In this document: positions 33,223 through 50,690 of the stretch, piece by piece
Layout of the letters: every line of letters begins with the position of its first letter
How positions within the stretch are numbered: position 1 is the stretch's first letter
Assembly (NCBI GenBank): GCA_015065975.1
Contig: SVPG01000001.1
Coordinates: 66,115-130,114 of the forward strand
Length of the DNA: 64,000 nt
Direction: 5' to 3'
DNA from: Oscillospiraceae bacterium
Lineage (GTDB): Bacteria > Bacillota > Clostridia > Oscillospirales > Acutalibacteraceae
Notes under the pieces: model-generated
The model's input: the letters and a program-made list of their open reading frames with translations, nothing else
Database searches by the model: none
Told to the model about the DNA's origin: nothing
Made by a program: the position numbers and the translations under genes

Positions 33223-33260
33223 CTTGACAGATGAAATTCTATGGTCTATAATACAAGCGA
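33223..33260 (+). promoter_or_regulatory. Sigma-70-type promoter upstream of the TPP riboswitch
   Basis: TTGACA, 17-bp spacer, TATAAT. Confidence 0.5.
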
Positions 33261-33267
33261 AAAATAT

Positions 33268-33380
33268 AATGGGGTGCTGACTTAAAGTCGGCTGAGATTC
33301 CGAATGGAAAACCCGGGAACCTGATCCGGATAATGCCGGCGTAGGAATTTGTATTTACTTGTCACACGTCAGGGTTTCTC
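33268..33380 (+). ncRNA. TPP (THI-box) riboswitch with terminator-type expression platform
   Basis: ggggtgc...gctgaga...aacctgatccggataatgccggcgtaggaa matches the THI-element consensus. Followed by a CACGUC/GGCGUG hairpin with a U-run, upstream of thiT. Confidence 0.85.
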
Positions 33381-44082: not shown

Positions 44083-44145
44083 TGCTTTCAGTTTTCTTCG
44101 GTATGTGATATAATTTTCAAAAATGCATCGGAAGGAGGCGGACAT

Positions 44146-45393
44146 ATGTCATCATACAGTGAACTTGTCAAGAATTTTGAGAAGGTTCGCACCTATATGC
44201 GCGACTTTTATGTCTACGGACTGAAAAGCCGCAGCGAATACGACAAAAAGAGCGCACGCTCATACGACGACGAGCGCAGACGCATTGAGAGCTGGCTTGG
44301 CGAGCATATGGGATATACAAGAACGACCGACGGCAAGAATATGTTCATCTCCATCGACAGCCGTATCTGTGCTCACAATCCCCTGTACAGGTCTCTCAAA
44401 GCAAGAAGCTTTACCGACAAGGATATCACGCTGCATTTTATACTCTTTGACATTCTCTCCTCCCCCGACATCTCGCTCACTCTGAGCGAGATACTGTGCC
44501 GTATGGACGACTATCTCGGCTGTTTTGAAAGCCCCATGATGTTCGATGAATCGACTGTGCGAAAGAAGCTCGGCGAATACATCCGCGAGGGTATAATCGT
44601 CGGCACAAAGCAGGGACGCACCATGCTTTACAGCCGCAGCGAGACGGTCGACATCTCCTGCGACACCGACGCTGTCCACTTTTTCTCCGAAACTGCGCCC
44701 TGCGGAGTTGTCGGGTCGTTTCTGCTCGACAAGCTTCCCCTCCACAGCGACAATATCTTTTTCAAGCACCACTATATAACCTCCGCGCTTGACAGCGATG
44801 TCCTCGCCTCGCTCTTTGACGCAATGCATCGAAAGTGCGAGATTGCCGCGGTCAACACAGCGCGTCACACGTCGGGAACAAAAACTCTCAATCTCGTTCC
44901 CCTTCGCATTTTCATAAGTGTGCAGAGCGGACGCCAGCACCTTCTCGCCTATCAACCGCACAGCAAAAATTTCGGATCGTTCCGCCTCGATTATCTCTCC
45001 GATGTAAAAATCGGTCAGTGCTGTGCCGAGTTTGACCATCTGCGCTCACAGCTCGACCACTGTATGCAGTATATGTGGGGAGTCAACTGCCGCAATAACG
45101 AATCCCGCCTCGAACACGTGGAATTCACCATTCGGGTCGAGGACGGCGAGGAGCACATCGTCCACCGTCTCGAGCGCGAAAAACGCATCGGCACGGTTGA
45201 AAAGATCGACGATAAGCATTACAGATTTTTAGCCGATGTTTATGATACGAGCGAACTTATTCCCTGGATACGCACCTTTATATGCCGCATCACAAAGCTT
45301 GACTTCTCCGACCGCACAACCGAAAACCGTCTCAGGCGGGACATCGGCGAGATGTATAAAATGTACGGTATTGACGGAGGTGATACGGCTTGA
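44146..45393 (+). CDS. WYL domain-like regulatory protein (first of a tandem pair, PafB/PafC-like arrangement)
   Basis: Central motif RIFISVQSGRQHLLAYQPHSKNFGSFRLDYLSDVKI resembles the WYL core (WYLvaY...FRLDRI); C-terminus ELIPWIRTF...L resembles WCX; GGAGG RBS. Confidence 0.5.
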   Translation: MSSYSELVKNFEKVRTYMRDFYVYGLKSRSEYDKKSARSYDDERRRIESWLGEHMGYTRTTDGKNMFISIDSRICAHNPLYRSLKARSFTDKDITLHFILFDILSSPDISLTLSEILCRMDDYLGCFESPMMFDESTVRKKLGEYIREGIIVGTKQGRTMLYSRSETVDISCDTDAVHFFSETAPCGVVGSFLLDKLPLHSDNIFFKHHYITSALDSDVLASLFDAMHRKCEIAAVNTARHTSGTKTLNLVPLRIFISVQSGRQHLLAYQPHSKNFGSFRLDYLSDVKIGQCCAEFDHLRSQLDHCMQYMWGVNCRNNESRLEHVEFTIRVEDGEEHIVHRLEREKRIGTVEKIDDKHYRFLADVYDTSELIPWIRTFICRITKLDFSDRTTENRLRRDIGEMYKMYGIDGGDTA

Positions 45394-46301
45394 TCTTCAG
45401 CGAACTCTACTCGGTCTATTACAACGCCGTCGCAAAGATACTCTCCCTTGCCGTAAAGGGCGAGGCTGACGAAAAAGCTTTGCATCATATTATCTCGCAG
45501 TACGCCTTCTCGGAAAGTATGCTCACCATTCTCCCCTCGCTCAGAGAGGAAAAATGGCAGCTTCTCAAAAGCGATATGACCACTCCTCTCAGGCACGAGC
45601 CCACCATGCCGCTCACAACGCTCGAAAAACGCTGGCTCAAATCGCTGTCTCTCGATGAACGCATAAGGCTTTTTGACCTTCCTTTTGAGGGACTCGACGA
45701 CGTTGAACCTCTGTTCACCCCCGACGACTATGTCATATACGACAGGTACTGCGACGGTGACCCGTACGACAGCGACGAATATATAAAGATATTTCGCACG
45801 GTGCTTGAAGCCGTCCGTCAAAAACACCCTTTGAAAATATGCGCTTACAACCGCCGCGGAAATGTTATGGTTCTCAACGTCCTTCCGTCACGGCTTGAGT
45901 ATTCAGAAAAGGACGACAAGTTCCGACTCATTTTCACGGGATGCCGCCACGCAGACACGATCAATCTGTCGCGCATAATCTCCTGCCGCATACCCGATGA
46001 AGAAATCCGCCTTTCCTGCGAGCCGGTACCCCGTGAGAAAAGAACTCTCACACTTCGCGTACGGGACGAAAGAAACGCTCTCGAACGCGCAATGCTTCAT
46101 TTCGCGCACTTTGAAAAACAGGCCGAACGCCTCGACGAAAAGCATTATACAATGCGGATAAACTACGACCGTGCCGACGAGACCGAGATGGTCATACGGG
46201 TGCTCGGTTTCGGCCCTCTCGTCGAAGTAATCGAGCCGCAATCCTTCCGTGAGCTTATAATCGAACGACTCAAAAAGCAAAAAAGCTGTGGACTCAAATG
46301 A
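45390..46301 (+). CDS. WYL/WCX domain-like regulatory protein (second of tandem pair)
   Basis: KFRLIFTGCRHADTINLSRIISCRI is WYL-like; C-terminal MVIRVLGFGPLVEVIEPQSFRELIIERL matches WCX; 4-bp overlap (ATGA) with the upstream paralog. Confidence 0.5.
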   Translation: MIFSELYSVYYNAVAKILSLAVKGEADEKALHHIISQYAFSESMLTILPSLREEKWQLLKSDMTTPLRHEPTMPLTTLEKRWLKSLSLDERIRLFDLPFEGLDDVEPLFTPDDYVIYDRYCDGDPYDSDEYIKIFRTVLEAVRQKHPLKICAYNRRGNVMVLNVLPSRLEYSEKDDKFRLIFTGCRHADTINLSRIISCRIPDEEIRLSCEPVPREKRTLTLRVRDERNALERAMLHFAHFEKQAERLDEKHYTMRINYDRADETEMVIRVLGFGPLVEVIEPQSFRELIIERLKKQKSCGLK

Positions 46302-46312
46302 GTTCGCAGCTT
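46270..46312 (+). terminator. Terminator overlapping the end of the second WYL gene
   Basis: caaaaaagctgtgg...cgcagcttttttt. Confidence 0.6.
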
Positions 46313-46472
46313 TTTTTCCGTGTTTTTCCTGCCTGCCGATGATAGAATTCATATCGCAAGGAACACAAGGTGTTTGAATACAGCTTTCACCGCGGTGCGC
46401 AAGGCTGTGCCGACGCGTATGCCGAAACCTTCCCTGCACTCTTGGCAGCTCATTGACCGTCTGCGGTCATAG

Positions 46473-46524
46473 GAGCGGGGTTCAACTCCCCATTATTTTG
46501 CGGGTTCGATTCCCGCCGTATGCA
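46473..46524 (+). ncRNA. tRNA-like element: two T-arm-like hairpins without a complete tRNA (tRNA-mimic RNA or tRNA 3'-half relic)
   Basis: GGGGTTCAACTCCCC and GCGGGTTCGATTCCCGC(CGTATGC A). The second has a perfect T-stem, a TTCGATT loop and an acceptor-like 3' strand. No complementary 5' acceptor or anticodon arm found upstream. Confidence 0.4.
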
Positions 46525-46774
46525 AACTGCATATGCCCCGGTTGGTATAAGACAGAACACAACAAAAAAAACGCAGCTGCCCCGCAGAGCGCATCGGAGA
46601 CAGCTCTCCCCCGCGCCGAGCAATGCACTGTCTGCCCTGCCCGAAAACGGATACCGCGTATCTGCCGTCTGCACCAAGCTTTTTTCGTGCAGACCTGTGA
46701 ACGCTCAAGCTTTCGGCCGCCGATACTGCATGGGCTGCTGCAAACGAATTTTATCTCATGGAGGATTACATATT

Positions 46775-47878
46775 ATGAAAAAGATCATTGTCAGCGAAAA
46801 AGAAAGAGGATTCCTTTTCAGAAACGGAAAGTATATCAAGATGCTCGGCGCGGGAAAATACTATCTTTTCGGCGACAGCGAGATCGAAAAGGTCGAGCTT
46901 TCCCGTCCCGTCGTCTGCTCGAAATGCGAGCTTGAGACCCTTCTTGCCGACAGCGCCGTTGCAGACTGCGTATCGGTAATCGAAATCGGTGACGAGCAGA
47001 TCGCTCTTCACTATATAAACGGAAAGTTCGACAACATTCTCAGACGCGGCAAGCACGCTTTCTGGTCGGTCAACGATGTCCACGAGTACAGACTTGTCGA
47101 CATATCATCGCCCGAAGTCGACCCGTCCGTCCCCGAATACATATTCGACAGCATCTCTCCCCTTTATTATATAAAGGTCGAGGTTGCCGACTATCAGAAG
47201 GCCAGACTCTGCTTTAACAGAAAATTTGTCAGACTTCTTGATGCGGGAACATATTATTTCTGGCGAAACAGTGTTAAAATAGATGTGGACTTTGTCGATA
47301 CAAGGCTCACACAGATGAATATCACGGGTCAGGAAATGCTGACCGCCGATAAGGTATCGCTGCGCATAAACTTCGTGTGCAACTACCGCATAACCGACCC
47401 CGTCAGAATAAACAGCGAGATCGACGATTTTTCCGAGCAGATACACGTTGCGGCTCAGCTTGCACTGCGCGAGTATGTCGGCAGATACAAGCTCGACGAG
47501 ATCCTTGAAAACAAGGATCAGATGTCCGAGTTCGTCTATAAGAAGCTCAAGGAAAAAGAGGAAAGCCTCTTTGTTGAGATATGCGACGCCGGTGTCAAGG
47601 ATATTATCCTTCCCGGAGAAATACGCGAGATAATGAACACCGTCCTTGTCGCCGAAAAGCGCGCACAGGCGAATGTCATCACCCGCCGTGAGGAGGTCGC
47701 CTCCACAAGATCGCTGCTCAACACCGCAAAGCTCATGGATGAAAACAAGACCCTCTACAAGCTCAAGGAGCTTGAGTTCGTCGAGCGCATCTGTGAGAAC
47801 GTCGGAAGCATAAACCTCGGCACCGATTCGGATATCCTCTCTCAGCTCACGGGCATTCTGAGAGGACACGCCGTATAA
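46775..47878 (+). CDS. SPFH (band-7/stomatin-prohibitin-like) domain protein without a TM anchor
   Basis: ADKVSLRINFVCNYRITDPVR and a following coiled-coil, typical of SPFH; GGAGGA RBS 9 nt upstream of the ATG at 46775. The ORF track's 46520 start would read through the tRNA-like region. Confidence 0.7.
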   Translation: MKKIIVSEKERGFLFRNGKYIKMLGAGKYYLFGDSEIEKVELSRPVVCSKCELETLLADSAVADCVSVIEIGDEQIALHYINGKFDNILRRGKHAFWSVNDVHEYRLVDISSPEVDPSVPEYIFDSISPLYYIKVEVADYQKARLCFNRKFVRLLDAGTYYFWRNSVKIDVDFVDTRLTQMNITGQEMLTADKVSLRINFVCNYRITDPVRINSEIDDFSEQIHVAAQLALREYVGRYKLDEILENKDQMSEFVYKKLKEKEESLFVEICDAGVKDIILPGEIREIMNTVLVAEKRAQANVITRREEVASTRSLLNTAKLMDENKTLYKLKELEFVERICENVGSINLGTDSDILSQLTGILRGHAV

Positions 47879-47894
47879 CGAAAGGAAAGTCACA

Positions 47895-49097
47895 ATGATT
47901 GAAATAATCGGAAAACATAACCGCGCCGTCTGCTACACGGACGACCTCGAAACAAATGCATACGAGCAGATTCTCGCCGTGTGCGACGAAAAGGCGTTCG
48001 CCGGCTCAAAAATACGCATCATGCCCGATGTTCACGCGGGAATGGGCTGCACCATCGGCACCACCATGACCATTCACGACAAGATCGTTCCGGGAATGGT
48101 GGGCGTCGATATCGGCTGCGGAATGGAGACCGTGCTTATCTCCGAGAAGGATATCGACTTCGAAAAGCTCGACAGCGTGATACGCCAAAAGATTCCCTGC
48201 GGCAGAGATGTGCGGCAAATTCCCCACCCTTTCAGCCGCGAGATAAACCTCGATGACCTGCGCTGTGCATATCATGTCAACCTCGTTCGCGCACGACAGA
48301 GCATTGGCACGCTCGGCGGCGGCAATCATTTCATCGAGCTCGACCGTGACAGCGACGGAAACATATATCTTGTCGTTCATTCGGGCAGCCGTCATCTGGG
48401 ACGCGAGGTGGCAGAGTACTACCAGAAACAGGGACGTCTCGCTATGTGGGGCGGCGCAAACCACCAGATAGAGCAGACGATAGCCGCTCTCAAAGCTGAG
48501 GGTCGTTTCTCCGAAATAAACTCTACCGTCAAGGCGCTCAAAAAGGAGCGGGAAATACCTATCGCCCGCGATCTTGCATACGTTGAAGGCAAGCTTTTCG
48601 ATGACTATATTCACGATATGAAGATCGTGCAGACCTTCGCCGCTCTCAACAGAAAGGCCATGACACGGGTAATACTCGACAATATGGGATTCACCGAAAT
48701 CGAGCGGTTCACCACCATTCACAACTACATCGACACCGACGCAATGATCCTGAGAAAGGGCTCTGTCTCCGCAAAGCTCGGAGAAAAGCTTCTCATTCCC
48801 ATAAACATGCGTGACGGCAGCCTCATCTGCATCGGCAAAGGCAGCGAGGACTGGAACTGCTCGGCTCCTCACGGTGCGGGCAGACTCATGTCCCGTTCGG
48901 CAGCGCTTCGGAATCTTTCGATGGACGAATACAAAGAGCAGATGTCGGGAATATATTCCACCTGCGTTCTGCCCGACACGCTCGACGAATCGCCGATGGC
49001 TTACAAGAGCATGGACGAGATCATAAAACAGATAACTCCCACTGCACAGATAATCAACCGCATTACACCGATATACAACTTCAAAGCAGCCGAATAA
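47895..49097 (+). CDS. rtcB: RtcB-family RNA 3'-phosphate ligase
   Basis: IMPDVHAGMGCTIGTT, GVDIGCGM, GGGNHFIELD and HSGSRHLG metal/GTP-binding motifs. Confidence 0.9.
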   Translation: MIEIIGKHNRAVCYTDDLETNAYEQILAVCDEKAFAGSKIRIMPDVHAGMGCTIGTTMTIHDKIVPGMVGVDIGCGMETVLISEKDIDFEKLDSVIRQKIPCGRDVRQIPHPFSREINLDDLRCAYHVNLVRARQSIGTLGGGNHFIELDRDSDGNIYLVVHSGSRHLGREVAEYYQKQGRLAMWGGANHQIEQTIAALKAEGRFSEINSTVKALKKEREIPIARDLAYVEGKLFDDYIHDMKIVQTFAALNRKAMTRVILDNMGFTEIERFTTIHNYIDTDAMILRKGSVSAKLGEKLLIPINMRDGSLICIGKGSEDWNCSAPHGAGRLMSRSAALRNLSMDEYKEQMSGIYSTCVLPDTLDESPMAYKSMDEIIKQITPTAQIINRITPIYNFKAAE

Positions 49098-49142: not shown

Positions 49143-49289
49143 CATGTCGCAGGTAAAACGATCTATTGCTAAAAACATCAATTTTCCTCTCGTTTATCGA
49201 ATTTTTTTATACATCTTGATATATTTGTATAAATGGTGTATAATGTTATACGATACTATTATAAACAGATCGGCGGTGATGAATCTGTC

Positions 49290-50690
49290 ATGAAAAAGAT
49301 ACGCAAGGAAAGCCTTATCACTGTGATTTTCGGCACTGCGCTCGTTGTCACTCTGCTTCTTCTTGTCTCATATTATATGTGGATCAGATACGACAATCAG
49401 AAGCTCCACAAAGTTTCGCTTTCCGAAACCACTTTCAGCGACGGGGTTTATACTCTTGACGATTTCACCGTAAAAATCGCTCCCCGCGGCGGCGATTCGG
49501 GTGCGTGGAACAAGGACCCGATCCTCGACGAAACGGGCAGCGTTCTTCACAATCAGATGGTCGGTACGATATACGAGCTCACTCTGACAAACACATCGGG
49601 CGCAAGGATAACCGACTGGACAATGGAGCTTTTCATACCGGAGCATCTGTGGCTCAACAACGCCTGGTGCGGAACGCTCGAATTCCAACAGACCACAAGC
49701 GGCGAGCTTCTTGTGCAGGAGCTCGACCTGCGCGAGTTCACAACCAAGGAGATAACCCTCGACCACTATATCGACCATACGGGACCGATGATCCCCATGA
49801 ATCCCGGTGACAGCTTCATCTACCACCCGAGCAAGGCCGATAACGAGATGCCGCTCGACACAAAGAAGCAAAACGTTGAGACGAACTATTTTGCTCTCGT
49901 CGGATTCATTGTGTATGTTGAGGGGCAGCCGCTCGATTACTGCATCGATTTCGGTACCGCCTCGTTCAGCTATCATCTCGAGCGCAACCCTCTGACATCG
50001 CCGATTTTTATAATCCTTATAGTTTTTTCCGCTATATGGCTCATACTGCTCACGGCGATGATAATTTCACAGATTCGCATAAAGACCCTGCTCAGACAGC
50101 AGCAGCACGACGCAAAGATCATCGAGCAGTCGATCAACACATTCATTAACTTCATCGAAGCAAAGGACCCCAACACAAAGGGTCATTCCGAACGCGTTGC
50201 AAAGATATCCTACGCTATGGCAAACGATATGGGATACTCTCCGCGTGAATGCAACCGCATCTATTACATAGCTCTTATGCACGACTGCGGCAAGATTTCC
50301 ATACCGGCGACCATTCTTCGCAAGCCCGGCAAGCTGACCGACGAGGAGTATGAAATCATCAAGAGTCACACGACCTACGGCGAAAAGATGCTTCGCGATT
50401 TCACCTCCATCAACGGTATCGATCTCGGCGTTCTGTATCATCACGAGCGTTACGACGGCGGCGGATATCCACGCGGACTGTCGGGCGAGGATATTCCGAA
50501 GATTGCGAGAATCATATGCGTTGCCGATTCTCTCGACGCGATGAACAGCTGCAGATGCTACCGACCGAAAATGACACCCGAGGAAATAATCGAAGAGCTC
50601 GTGGCAAACAAAGGAAAGCAATTCGACCCCGATGTTGTCGACTGTGTGCTCAAGCTGATAAATCAGAATATAATAACTCTCGGTGAATAA
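49290..50690 (+). CDS. HD-GYP domain phosphodiesterase with N-terminal TM-flanked extracytoplasmic sensor domain
   Basis: HSERVAKIS...ALMHDCGKISIP...HHERYDGGGYP HD-GYP motifs and two TM helices. The start choice (49290 versus 49233) is uncertain. Confidence 0.8.
   Translation: MKKIRKESLITVIFGTALVVTLLLLVSYYMWIRYDNQKLHKVSLSETTFSDGVYTLDDFTVKIAPRGGDSGAWNKDPILDETGSVLHNQMVGTIYELTLTNTSGARITDWTMELFIPEHLWLNNAWCGTLEFQQTTSGELLVQELDLREFTTKEITLDHYIDHTGPMIPMNPGDSFIYHPSKADNEMPLDTKKQNVETNYFALVGFIVYVEGQPLDYCIDFGTASFSYHLERNPLTSPIFIILIVFSAIWLILLTAMIISQIRIKTLLRQQQHDAKIIEQSINTFINFIEAKDPNTKGHSERVAKISYAMANDMGYSPRECNRIYYIALMHDCGKISIPATILRKPGKLTDEEYEIIKSHTTYGEKMLRDFTSINGIDLGVLYHHERYDGGGYPRGLSGEDIPKIARIICVADSLDAMNSCRCYRPKMTPEEIIEELVANKGKQFDPDVVDCVLKLINQNIITLGE

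Follow-up and report, generated by a model that had tools for sequence, protein, structure and literature searches.

RtcB operons are widespread, and RtcR, a CARF regulator of enterobacteria, is to our knowledge the one case in which damage sensing by such operons is understood. In the RtcR-RtcBA systems of E. coli and Salmonella, the RtcB operon has a dedicated regulator with a sensor domain predicted or shown to bind nucleic-acid fragments, and the Salmonella operon carries Ro and Y RNAs as well. Regulators with an HTH-WYL-WCX fold include PafBC of actinobacteria, encoded by adjacent or fused genes, and DriD of Caulobacter; these bind near the -35 region of -10-dependent promoters, and single-stranded nucleic acid activates them. 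Known WYL regulators bind ssDNA, and the sole RNA-binding WYL precedent that we know of is WYL1, an accessory protein of Cas13d. According to bioRxiv 10.1101/312249, Burroughs and Aravind (NAR 2016) used comparative genomics to predict a core of Band-7 protein, b7a-tRNA and RtcB, and later papers of the Burroughs/Aravind group cite the 2016 work for WYL regulators that sense cyclic-ended RNA and control RNA repair. The b7a-tRNA was without experimental validation as of 2018, according to the same report (bioRxiv 10.1101/312249).

We analysed the locus at 44146-49097 of a 64,000-nt stretch of DNA from an Oscillospiraceae bacterium (hereafter the window); the parts of the locus mapped below all lie on its + strand. 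Two WYL-type genes are followed in order by a motif and promoter, a structured RNA, an SPFH gene and rtcB. As far as the 2016 prediction is represented in the work that cites it, this locus is a Clostridial version of the RNA-repair system whose core was predicted there. Both place RtcB by a Band-7/SPFH protein and a tRNA-like ncRNA that can be swapped with Ro/Y-RNA-type partners, and RlaP is present in sister loci. In contrast to the Band-7/b7a-tRNA/RtcB systems as reported, the tRNA-like part in the window is cut down to a T-arm and variable arms and is fused to extra conserved helices and a 3' domain of ~170 nt, and a tandem WYL pair and a defined motif stand in front of the unit. A preliminary description of this DNA held that the arrangement was not a described module. 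This stands for the tandem WYL pair as a regulator, for its operator and for the large two-domain RNA, none of which is described in the literature that we found, but not for the core or for the link between WYL proteins and RNA repair; the 2016 paper is represented here by citing work. Compared with RtcR, the regulator consists of two WYL-WCX proteins without CARF, AAA+ or sigma-54 parts, its proposed target promoter is of the sigma-70 type with an extended -10, and there is no RtcA in the locus. Neither RtcR (CARF-AAA+-HTH) nor RtcA was found among the ORFs flanking the unit or in the related loci examined.

We propose that 44146-49097 is a single RNA-repair unit split into two transcription units. 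From the first, ORF1 and ORF2 would be produced together under their own promoter, and they most likely act as a complex in which ORF1 supplies a winged HTH and both proteins supply WYL-WCX sensor modules. This complex would bind a 22-nt motif that covers the -35 region of a promoter with an extended -10, right behind the terminator of the first unit, and would thereby control transcription of the second, comprising a structured RNA of ~390 nt, the SPFH gene and rtcB. The ligand of the WYL modules may be a nucleic acid produced by RNA damage, for instance fragments ending in a 2',3'-cyclic phosphate or 5'-OH, and it would turn the operon on; activation, as in DriD and PafBC, is slightly favoured over repressor release. 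The RNA and the SPFH protein would assemble into a particle and offer broken RNAs to RtcB, as proposed for Ro and Y RNA, and RtcB would reseal the breaks. The WYL pair would then be a functional stand-in for the CARF regulator RtcR in Clostridia, and a candidate for a second sensor-regulator of RtcB operons, unrelated to RtcR. We put the probability of this reading as a whole at about two in three. More tentatively, it is possible that the ~390-nt RNA represents a new class of large structured ncRNA, with a tRNA-like module and a 3' domain, acting in a repair particle with a soluble SPFH cage and RtcB, and that, jointly with this, ORF1-ORF2 is the first WYL regulator with a damaged-RNA ligand and the Gram-positive counterpart of RtcR.

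The gap between ORF2 and the SPFH gene (46302-46774) was initially described as a 470-nt gene-free region with tRNA-like hairpins. It measures 473 nt and does hold two T-arm-like hairpins, but it is not empty: it contains the ~390-nt RNA and, fused to each other, the conserved 22-nt motif and a promoter with an extended -10. We delimited the 5' domain of this RNA (46355-46572) by nhmmer and covariation, with the 5' end placed from the promoter. It comprises a conserved hairpin (GGTGC..GG...CC..GTATGCC), a variable anticodon-like arm, a T-arm and hairpins after the T-arm; it scores 90 bits in nhmmer over 46357-46525, and the 25 pairs counted show 95.5% in-register pairing, against 30-55% when one strand is slid. 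The tRNA-like T-arm, GCGGGTTCGATTCCCGC (GCGGG-TTCGATT-CCCGC, 46500-46516), is retained in almost every SPFH locus, and its stem shows compensatory changes. The other hairpin, GGGGTTCAACTCCCC (GGGG-TTCAACT-CCCC, 46477-46491), has a T-loop-like loop and is limited to a subfamily made up of the window and three related loci (L001, L025 and L059). We also considered closing the 5' domain with a terminal helix (GCAAG/CTTGC), which was dropped as it had no covariation support. The 3' domain (46573-46743) is a long fold of many helices, in which the invariant loop blocks include GGATACCG (46649-46656), CTCAA and GCCG. It scores 91 bits in nhmmer, and its 46 pairs show 91% in-register pairing against 38-43% when slid, with compensatory changes in 34 pairs and the observed value reached by none of 500 shuffles. 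Covariation in the RNA is far above controls and, together with its conservation in relatives, bears out the intergenic ncRNA first suggested here, including its tRNA-like element.

ARAGORN found no tRNA in the window, and Rfam, at gathering and at permissive thresholds, offered no family for the RNA, the sole matches being 17-nt fragments (tmRNA) at the T-arm of 46500-46516. The homologous element in four relatives (L010, L011, L036 and L075) is scored as a tRNA by ARAGORN, and that of L075 is matched as a tRNA by Rfam as well (40 bits); in the window, where just the T-arm is left, the element is recognized by neither the ARAGORN nor the Rfam tRNA model. Both RNA domains lie immediately upstream of SPFH in every genome locus with enough sequence, including loci on the opposite strand, and among 49 metagenome loci with the RNA, 46 have SPFH directly downstream and the other three have no detected SPFH gene.

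The position of the RNA raises the alternative that it is a cis-acting leader, either a riboswitch or a protein- or tRNA-sensing attenuator, which sets SPFH-rtcB expression and has no partner in trans. The 3' domain ends 30-36 nt ahead of the SPFH start codon in most loci, no terminator separates the RNA from SPFH, conservation extends to the RBS, and the invariant internal-loop blocks resemble a binding pocket. We nonetheless regard a leader as rather doubtful. The RNA is conserved even where 200-1100 nt or an extra ORF separates it from SPFH (L002, L025, L042, L036 and L010), we found neither an alternative terminator/anti-terminator pairing nor a pairing that would hide the RBS, and sister systems have free-standing tRNA-like genes at the same position. 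A T-box, suggested by the likeness of GGATACCG to the T-box core, was rejected in the absence of an Rfam match and of a terminator/anti-terminator; Rfam gave neither a T-box nor a Y-RNA match in the gap.

The genes downstream of the RNA are as first described, a soluble SPFH protein and an RtcB ligase. The SPFH/Band-7 protein (367 aa, 46775-47878; Band_7, 6e-28) has no hydrophobic segment, is preceded by an RBS (GGAGG, 46760-46764) and begins at the same ATG (46775) as its relatives. The gene for RtcB, an RNA 3'-phosphate ligase (400 aa, 47895-49097; Pfam RtcB, 5e-60), starts 16 nt past the SPFH gene, an adjacency conserved in relatives. Every RtcB motif searched for was present (DIGCG, GGGNHF, HSGSR, HNY and PHGAGR), and these we take to provide the metal ligands and the nucleophile.

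Upstream of the regulator pair, we read from the sequence an extended -10, TGTGATATAAT (44104-44114), and an RBS, GGAAGGAGG (44130-44138). The former probably drives the pair; its role is inferred, because loci show no conservation ahead of ORF1, and no motif in that region is common to all of them. The regulator operon ends in an intrinsic terminator (46279-46316), a 17-bp stem followed by a T run, whose 5' arm encodes the conserved C-terminus of ORF2 and whose 3' arm is part of the 22-nt motif, GTTCGCAGCTTTTTTTCCGTGT (46302-46323; consensus ...CCGTGA). This motif, a candidate operator of the WYL pair on the basis of its conservation, spans the -35 region of the cargo promoter, of which the extended -10, TGATAGAAT (46340-46348; consensus TGGTAAAAT), has a fixed spacing to the motif. 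The 10-nt core of the motif is present in 69 of 82 loci, almost always right after ORF2 and independently of the cargo, and the distance from motif to TGGTAAAAT is fixed whatever the cargo. The window has one copy and shuffled sequence has none. Further copies precede second cargo units or ORF1 itself; the motif is ahead of ORF1 in five loci, as expected under autoregulation. Where the genes are arranged divergently, the motif stays with RtcB and faces it. A -35-like hexamer is fair in the consensus (GTGAAA) and poor in the window (GTGTTT).

ORF1 (415 aa, 44146-45393) and ORF2 (303 aa, 45390-46301) have the sizes and the 4-nt overlap given in the preliminary description, and all peptide strings quoted there are found in the translations. 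The TTG start of ORF2 lies within cTTGA, which holds the stop of ORF1, and an RBS (GGAGGTG) is read at 45377-45383. Profile and structure searches bore out the WYL-like cores proposed for both proteins and the WCX-like segment proposed for ORF2, and showed both to be WYL-WCX proteins. Pfam WYL scores 21.2 bits with ORF1, slightly below the 21.8 cut-off, and does not match ORF2; Pfam WCX scores 30 bits with ORF2, above the 23.9 cut-off, and a weak 14 bits with ORF1. The PADLOC WYL profile matches both (ORF1, 4.5e-9; ORF2, 1.5e-11); this profile derives from CRISPR-associated proteins. With both AlphaFold models, Foldseek retrieved DriD, PafBC, CapW and BrxR (E from 1e-10 to 1e-7), the top match of ORF1 being DriD 8tp8 (1.6e-10). 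ORF1 has a conserved N-terminal region ahead of the modelled part (1-91), a winged HTH (~92-164) that is confident in the model and has weak ArsR/SmtB-type matches, a WYL domain (~217-292) and a WCX domain (~323-406), and its residues 323-406 are confidently modelled and align with the C-terminal domain of DriD. ORF2 has an N-terminal helical region, a WYL-like barrel (~148-200) and a WCX domain (~217-298); its N-terminus is modelled as helices (3-93), partly at low confidence, and had no HTH match. More than 6500 relatives of ORF1 were found, and a phage collection gave no match to it.

The two ORFs had been called paralogous, and the relationship is visible in the fold only: direct BLAST between them is not significant, and profile-profile comparison (hhalign) is marginal (E 0.014). 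Likewise, the suggested resemblance to PafB/PafC extends to the WYL-WCX fold, with a winged HTH in ORF1, as shared also with DriD, and to the gene pair, but not to sequence orthology. Identity to PafBC and DriD is 10-18% in structural alignments, the regulon is RNA repair and not DNA damage, the motif differs and the HTH of ORF2 is not established. PDB sequence searches with ORF1, ORF2 and their profiles found no relatives, and neither these searches, the structural alignments, the cargo nor the motif pointed to PafB/PafC orthology or to a RecA-NDp promoter motif for ORF1/ORF2.

These results bear on a further alternative, that the motif is a mere promoter, UP or terminator element not bound by the pair, which might instead be an RNA-binding accessory of repair, as WYL1 is for Cas13d. 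The motif does have a T7 run and a -35-like hexamer, it supplies the 3' arm of the terminator beside ORF2, the HTH of ORF2 is doubtful, and among the Foldseek matches is 6oaw, deposited as a CRISPR Cas-related protein, which we take to be WYL1. This alternative is unlikely, however, as the GTTCGCAGC and CCGTG blocks are invariant even without a preceding terminator arm and in second copies, the winged HTH of ORF1 is confident with DNA-bound regulators as its best matches, and the five loci with the motif ahead of ORF1 are what autoregulation would predict.

In agreement with a conserved, translationally coupled pair, ORF1 and ORF2 occur together in 80 of 82 loci that carry ORF1, with the identical 4-nt overlap in 66 of the 80. 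Co-location with rtcB, which had been proposed as a check across genomes, is frequent: among loci with at least 4 kb of sequence (n = 44), RtcB is downstream of the pair in 36 and absent within 5 kb in eight. The cargo families were RtcB (43 loci), SPFH (25), DUF2828-vWA (18) and RlaP (5), arranged as RNA-SPFH-RtcB, as tRNA-like genes with DUF2828-vWA and RtcB, as RtcB-RlaP or, in Enterococcus, as Hen1-Pnkp-RlaP; this last adjoins a relative of the pair with 35% identity in Enterococcus raffinosus. Given that the cargo next to the pair is interchangeable, the pair is most likely a dedicated regulator of RNA-repair operons. As the same regulator family stands beside four different repair cassettes, the question of the RNA-damage signal is directly testable; the pair comes with a precisely placed candidate operator and promoter, and it is very common among Clostridia of the gut. 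The locus likewise offers a concrete RNA-protein system for testing the 2016 prediction, given that b7a-tRNA was reported as unvalidated in 2018. The link is not universal. In Treponema, a relative of the pair lacks repair genes in its vicinity, and five metagenome loci have RNA-SPFH(-RtcB-RlaP) without the pair nearby; the association of pair, RNA and SPFH is therefore frequent, not obligatory.

The analogy with Y RNAs drawn at the outset is apt, in that sister loci replace the RNA and SPFH by tRNA-like genes and a DUF2828-vWA protein. As in Ro60 (Rsr)/YrlA systems, a tRNA-mimicking RNA stands next to rtcB with a putative scaffold protein; unlike them, the window has no TROVE protein among the four proteins scanned and no Rfam Y-RNA match. 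The domain order and the DxSxS vWA motif suggest that DUF2828 may be Ro-like, a link to Ro60 that we did not find through PDB sequences or in the literature.

The fold of the pair and its position directly upstream of the controlled unit are shared with the BrxR and CapW repressors, which are single-gene homodimers with palindromic operators and phage-defence cargo. The preliminary description had pointed to BrxR and CapW as regulators that gate defence islands. On a corresponding rival reading, the pair regulates a phage-defence island and its adjacency to rtcB is incidental, and the Foldseek matches to BrxR and CapW and the CRISPR-associated origin of the PADLOC profile fit this reading. The conserved neighbourhood already largely refutes it, making it very improbable: of more than 120 loci examined, nearly all had repair genes as neighbours, whereas the outer flanks differed; PADLOC recognized none of the SPFH and RtcB genes as encoding a defence protein; and the outer flanks in the window are housekeeping genes. 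Finally, that the two neighbouring T-arm-like hairpins, with no intact tRNA, are remnants of tRNA genes or integration (att) sites of a mobile element is ruled out by covariation and fixed synteny, since more than 80 loci have an element with compensatory changes in a constant position ahead of SPFH, the hairpins lie inside a larger conserved fold, and the ORF list of 40-53 kb showed neither an integrase nor a repeat boundary. The ORFs flanking the unit are TrkA/TrkH upstream and an HD-GYP protein downstream.

ORF1 (44146-45393, + strand, 415 aa) and ORF2 (45390-46301, + strand, 303 aa) lie exactly where the preliminary description had placed them, and every peptide string that it quoted is present in their translations. 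The ORF1 stop (cTTGA) contains the TTG start of ORF2, with a GGAGGTG ribosome-binding site 6 nt upstream, and a strong intrinsic terminator (46279-46316) lies at the end of ORF2. A gap of 473 nt separates ORF2 from an SPFH/Band-7 gene (46775-47878, Pfam 6e-28), which is followed after 16 nt by rtcB (47895-49097, Pfam 5e-60). The SPFH protein lacks hydrophobic segments; RtcB retains all of the motifs DIGCG, GGGNHF, HSGSR, HNY and PHGAGR. The downstream neighbour, an HD-GYP-type protein of 485 aa (HD_5, 6e-37; 49233-50690, + strand), has a near-consensus promoter of its own at 49216-49244 and is not conserved beside the unit in other loci.

Sequence evidence that ORF1 and ORF2 are WYL/WCX proteins is moderate. 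Against the Pfam WYL profile (cut-off 21.8 bits) ORF1 scored 21.2 bits and ORF2 gave no match, and against Pfam WCX (cut-off 23.9 bits) they scored 14 and 30 bits, respectively; the PADLOC WYL profile matched both (4.5e-9 and 1.5e-11). AlphaFold models, built from alignments of 31 sequences, place a WYL barrel and a WCX domain in both proteins (residues 217-292 and 323-406 of ORF1, 148-200 and 217-298 of ORF2) and a confident winged helix-turn-helix in ORF1 (residues ~92-164); a helix-turn-helix could not be demonstrated in the N-terminal helices of ORF2. The top Foldseek matches of both models in the PDB are all WYL regulators (DriD, CapW, PafBC and BrxR; best E-values 1.6e-10 for ORF1 and 1e-7 for ORF2). 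Profiles and folds thus agree with the WYL/WCX identity first proposed from motifs. The two ORFs had also been called paralogous; they do share a fold, but BLAST detected no significant similarity between them and hhalign gave only E = 0.014 across the WYL region, so that the likeness is at fold level only. Residues 1-91 of ORF1 (44146-44418), which have a pLDDT below 50 and match no family, are among the best conserved of the family and include numerous invariant Arg, Tyr and Phe.

Relatives of ORF1 and of ORF2 number thousands each in gut and rumen Clostridia; carrier strains include Faecalimonas umbilicata DSM 103426 and a Blautia isolate. We compared 80 loci, each from a different species genome, and found the two genes adjacent in all of them, overlapping by the same 4 nt in 66 and by 14 nt in six, with variable outer flanks. 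The pair and RtcB, joined in one arrangement by the preliminary description, occur together in 36 of the 44 loci whose downstream sequence reaches 4 kb or more. Downstream families comprise RtcB (43 loci), SPFH (25), DUF2828 with a vWA domain bearing a DGSGSM motif (18), RlaP nucleotidyltransferase (five) and AAA ATPase (four). Operons of the DUF2828 type include one or two tRNA-like genes, called 'tRNA-Phe GAA' by ARAGORN and scored at 41-66 bits by the Rfam tRNA model; behind the same motif, the order of this alternative cargo is AAA ATPase, one or two tRNA-like genes, DUF2828-vWA and RtcB (L027, 8223-11449; L018, 9006-10708; L007, L046, L021, L033 and others). The domain order of the DUF2828-vWA protein is reminiscent of Ro60; a link to TROVE was sought and could not be demonstrated. 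On the Enterococcus raffinosus megaplasmid pCX012922 (L136, 1312-8146), a relative of the pair with 35% identity is divergent from a Hen1-Pnkp-RlaP cassette (Hen1_N 1e-62, PNKP_ligase 6e-32, RlaP 5e-91). The Clostridial motif is absent from its intergenic region, where a GAACTA-N7-TAGTTC palindrome flanks an A/T-rich spacer. RNA repair is what the pair loci share, with ligase and scaffold modules exchanged between loci, a 'syntax' that Burroughs and Aravind have reportedly described. On Treponema saccharophilum pTS1 (L135, 5446-10516), a 42%-identical pair has no RNA-repair gene annotated nearby, so that the link to RNA repair may not cover the whole family; this pair adjoins a NUDIX gene and a GGDEF protein and is followed by a 560-nt gap.

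Alignment of the loci revealed a conserved 22-nt block after ORF2, GTTCGCAGCTTTTTTTCCGTGA, followed at fixed spacing by an extended -10 element, TGGTAAAAT; the blocks GTTCGCAGC and CCGTG fall within 46290-46350. The 10-nt core, TTTTTCCGTG, is present in 69 of 82 loci irrespective of cargo, almost always immediately behind ORF2 and on the + strand. At a tolerance of up to three mismatches, the window holds one copy (46302-46323) and shuffled sequence none. Three loci (L016, L027, L051) have a second copy ahead of the tRNA-like/DUF2828 unit, and five (L024, L056, L061, L068, L069) have one ahead of ORF1 itself. Scanning viral contigs with the motif found two, both with the pair and RtcB; in one of these the motif points towards an rtcB gene of divergent orientation. 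We infer that the motif is a putative operator of the pair, lying over the -35 region. Six loci (L002, L010, L025, L042, L043, L045) have an additional ORF with a DUF4275 domain behind the motif and promoter, in some between the RNA and SPFH and in others directly after the promoter.

Conservation spans the whole gap between the promoter and the ribosome-binding site of SPFH. RNAalifold predicted 82 pairs from 15 sequences, 54 of them with compensatory changes; on separate 26-sequence alignments, the 3' domain (46573-46743) has 46 pairs (34 with compensatory changes) and the 5' domain 25 (10 with compensatory changes). Pairing in register is 91% for the 3' domain (38-43% when slid; 0/500 shuffles reached the observed value) and 95.5% for the 5' domain (30-55% when slid; 0/500 shuffles on four of five measures). 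Unpaired blocks that do not vary, among them GGATACCG, CTCAA, GCCG and GTATGCC, point to contacts within the tertiary structure or with proteins. The tRNA-like hairpins noted previously were located as two T-arm-like hairpins (46477-46491 and 46500-46516); ARAGORN found no tRNA in the gap and Rfam no family. Across members the tRNA-like part comprises a T-arm and, in many, a hairpin with a 7-nt anticodon-like loop; L075 and L078 have a full cloverleaf, and the subfamily of the window has extra arms inserted. In about 10 of the 26 aligned RNAs (L010, L011, L012, L020, L034, L038, L040, L058, L075, L078) this loop, just 5' of the T-arm, is CUGUNAA or near it, reading as 'anticodons' GUC, GUG, GUA and GUU, the same four as in queuosine tRNAs, the targets of colicin E5. 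Because other members have different loops, these may reflect shared ancestry rather than a decoy or sensor function.

By nhmmer, every SPFH locus with enough sequence has both RNA domains immediately upstream of SPFH, including two with SPFH on the other strand; neither domain was found with any other cargo. Of 50 metagenome hits to a degenerate 3'-domain pattern, 49 were real; 46 of these have a detected SPFH gene downstream, the other three having little downstream sequence left, and the pair lies upstream in most. Five loci (L090, L096, L102, L105, L110) carry RNA-SPFH(-RtcB-RlaP) behind unrelated genes with no adjacent pair, and thus the cassette can be unlinked from its regulator; L096 keeps the motif, so that its regulator may be encoded at another site in the genome. 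The genes preceding these cassettes are ABC permeases, AcrB/TetR, a type I restriction subunit or DUF4417.

Folds, coupling of the pair, conserved neighbourhood, motif with promoter and RNA structure were all established computationally. In the mechanism that we propose, the two regulators would form a complex acting at the motif, their WYL modules would sense a product of RNA damage, and sensing would switch on the RNA-SPFH-RtcB unit, in which RNA and SPFH would form a scaffold for RtcB. Activation is slightly favoured, because the candidate site lies over the -35 region of a -10-dependent promoter, the motif is asymmetric, and PafBC, the sole characterised two-gene WYL regulator, is an activator; release of a repressor instead would serve equally well. 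The main alternative to an operator is that the motif is purely promoter, UP element or terminator arm. Terminator and motif do overlap where, as in the window, nothing separates the motif from ORF2, and the motif is retained where another terminator precedes. In the window, the same bases (46279-46323) encode the conserved ORF2 C-terminus (..KSCGLK), form the intrinsic terminator that closes the regulator operon and hold the motif for the promoter that follows.

The unit is a well-defined Clostridial variant of a predicted, experimentally untouched RNA-repair class and not a new kind of system. Passages of Wang et al. (bioRxiv 10.1101/312249) credit Burroughs and Aravind (2016) with RtcB beside a Band-7 protein and a predicted 'band 7-associated tRNA', an arrangement interchangeable with Rsr/YrlA, and describe the prediction as lacking experimental validation. 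Passages of later Aravind-group papers, citing the 2016 paper, state that WYL regulators sense RNA with cyclic ends and that some of these control RNA-repair pathways; a 2026 paper noted an SPFH gene within the Pseudomonas rtc locus. The earlier view that this was not a described module therefore fails for the Band-7/tRNA-like RNA/RtcB core, which according to these passages was predicted in 2016, and stands for the tandem WYL regulator, its candidate operator and the large two-domain RNA, which appear undescribed, full-text literature searches having found no description of them. The suggestion of an RNA-damage-responsive repair unit was largely right, and the finding is real and coherent.

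A group II intron fragment (domains D1-D4; Rfam RF02001, 34.7 bits) lies just 3' of rtcB in one related locus (L011, 7011-7235, - strand). The window also holds a TPP riboswitch (33260-33365, + strand; Rfam RF00059, 70.3 bits against a cut-off of 54.3), unrelated to the RNA-repair unit.
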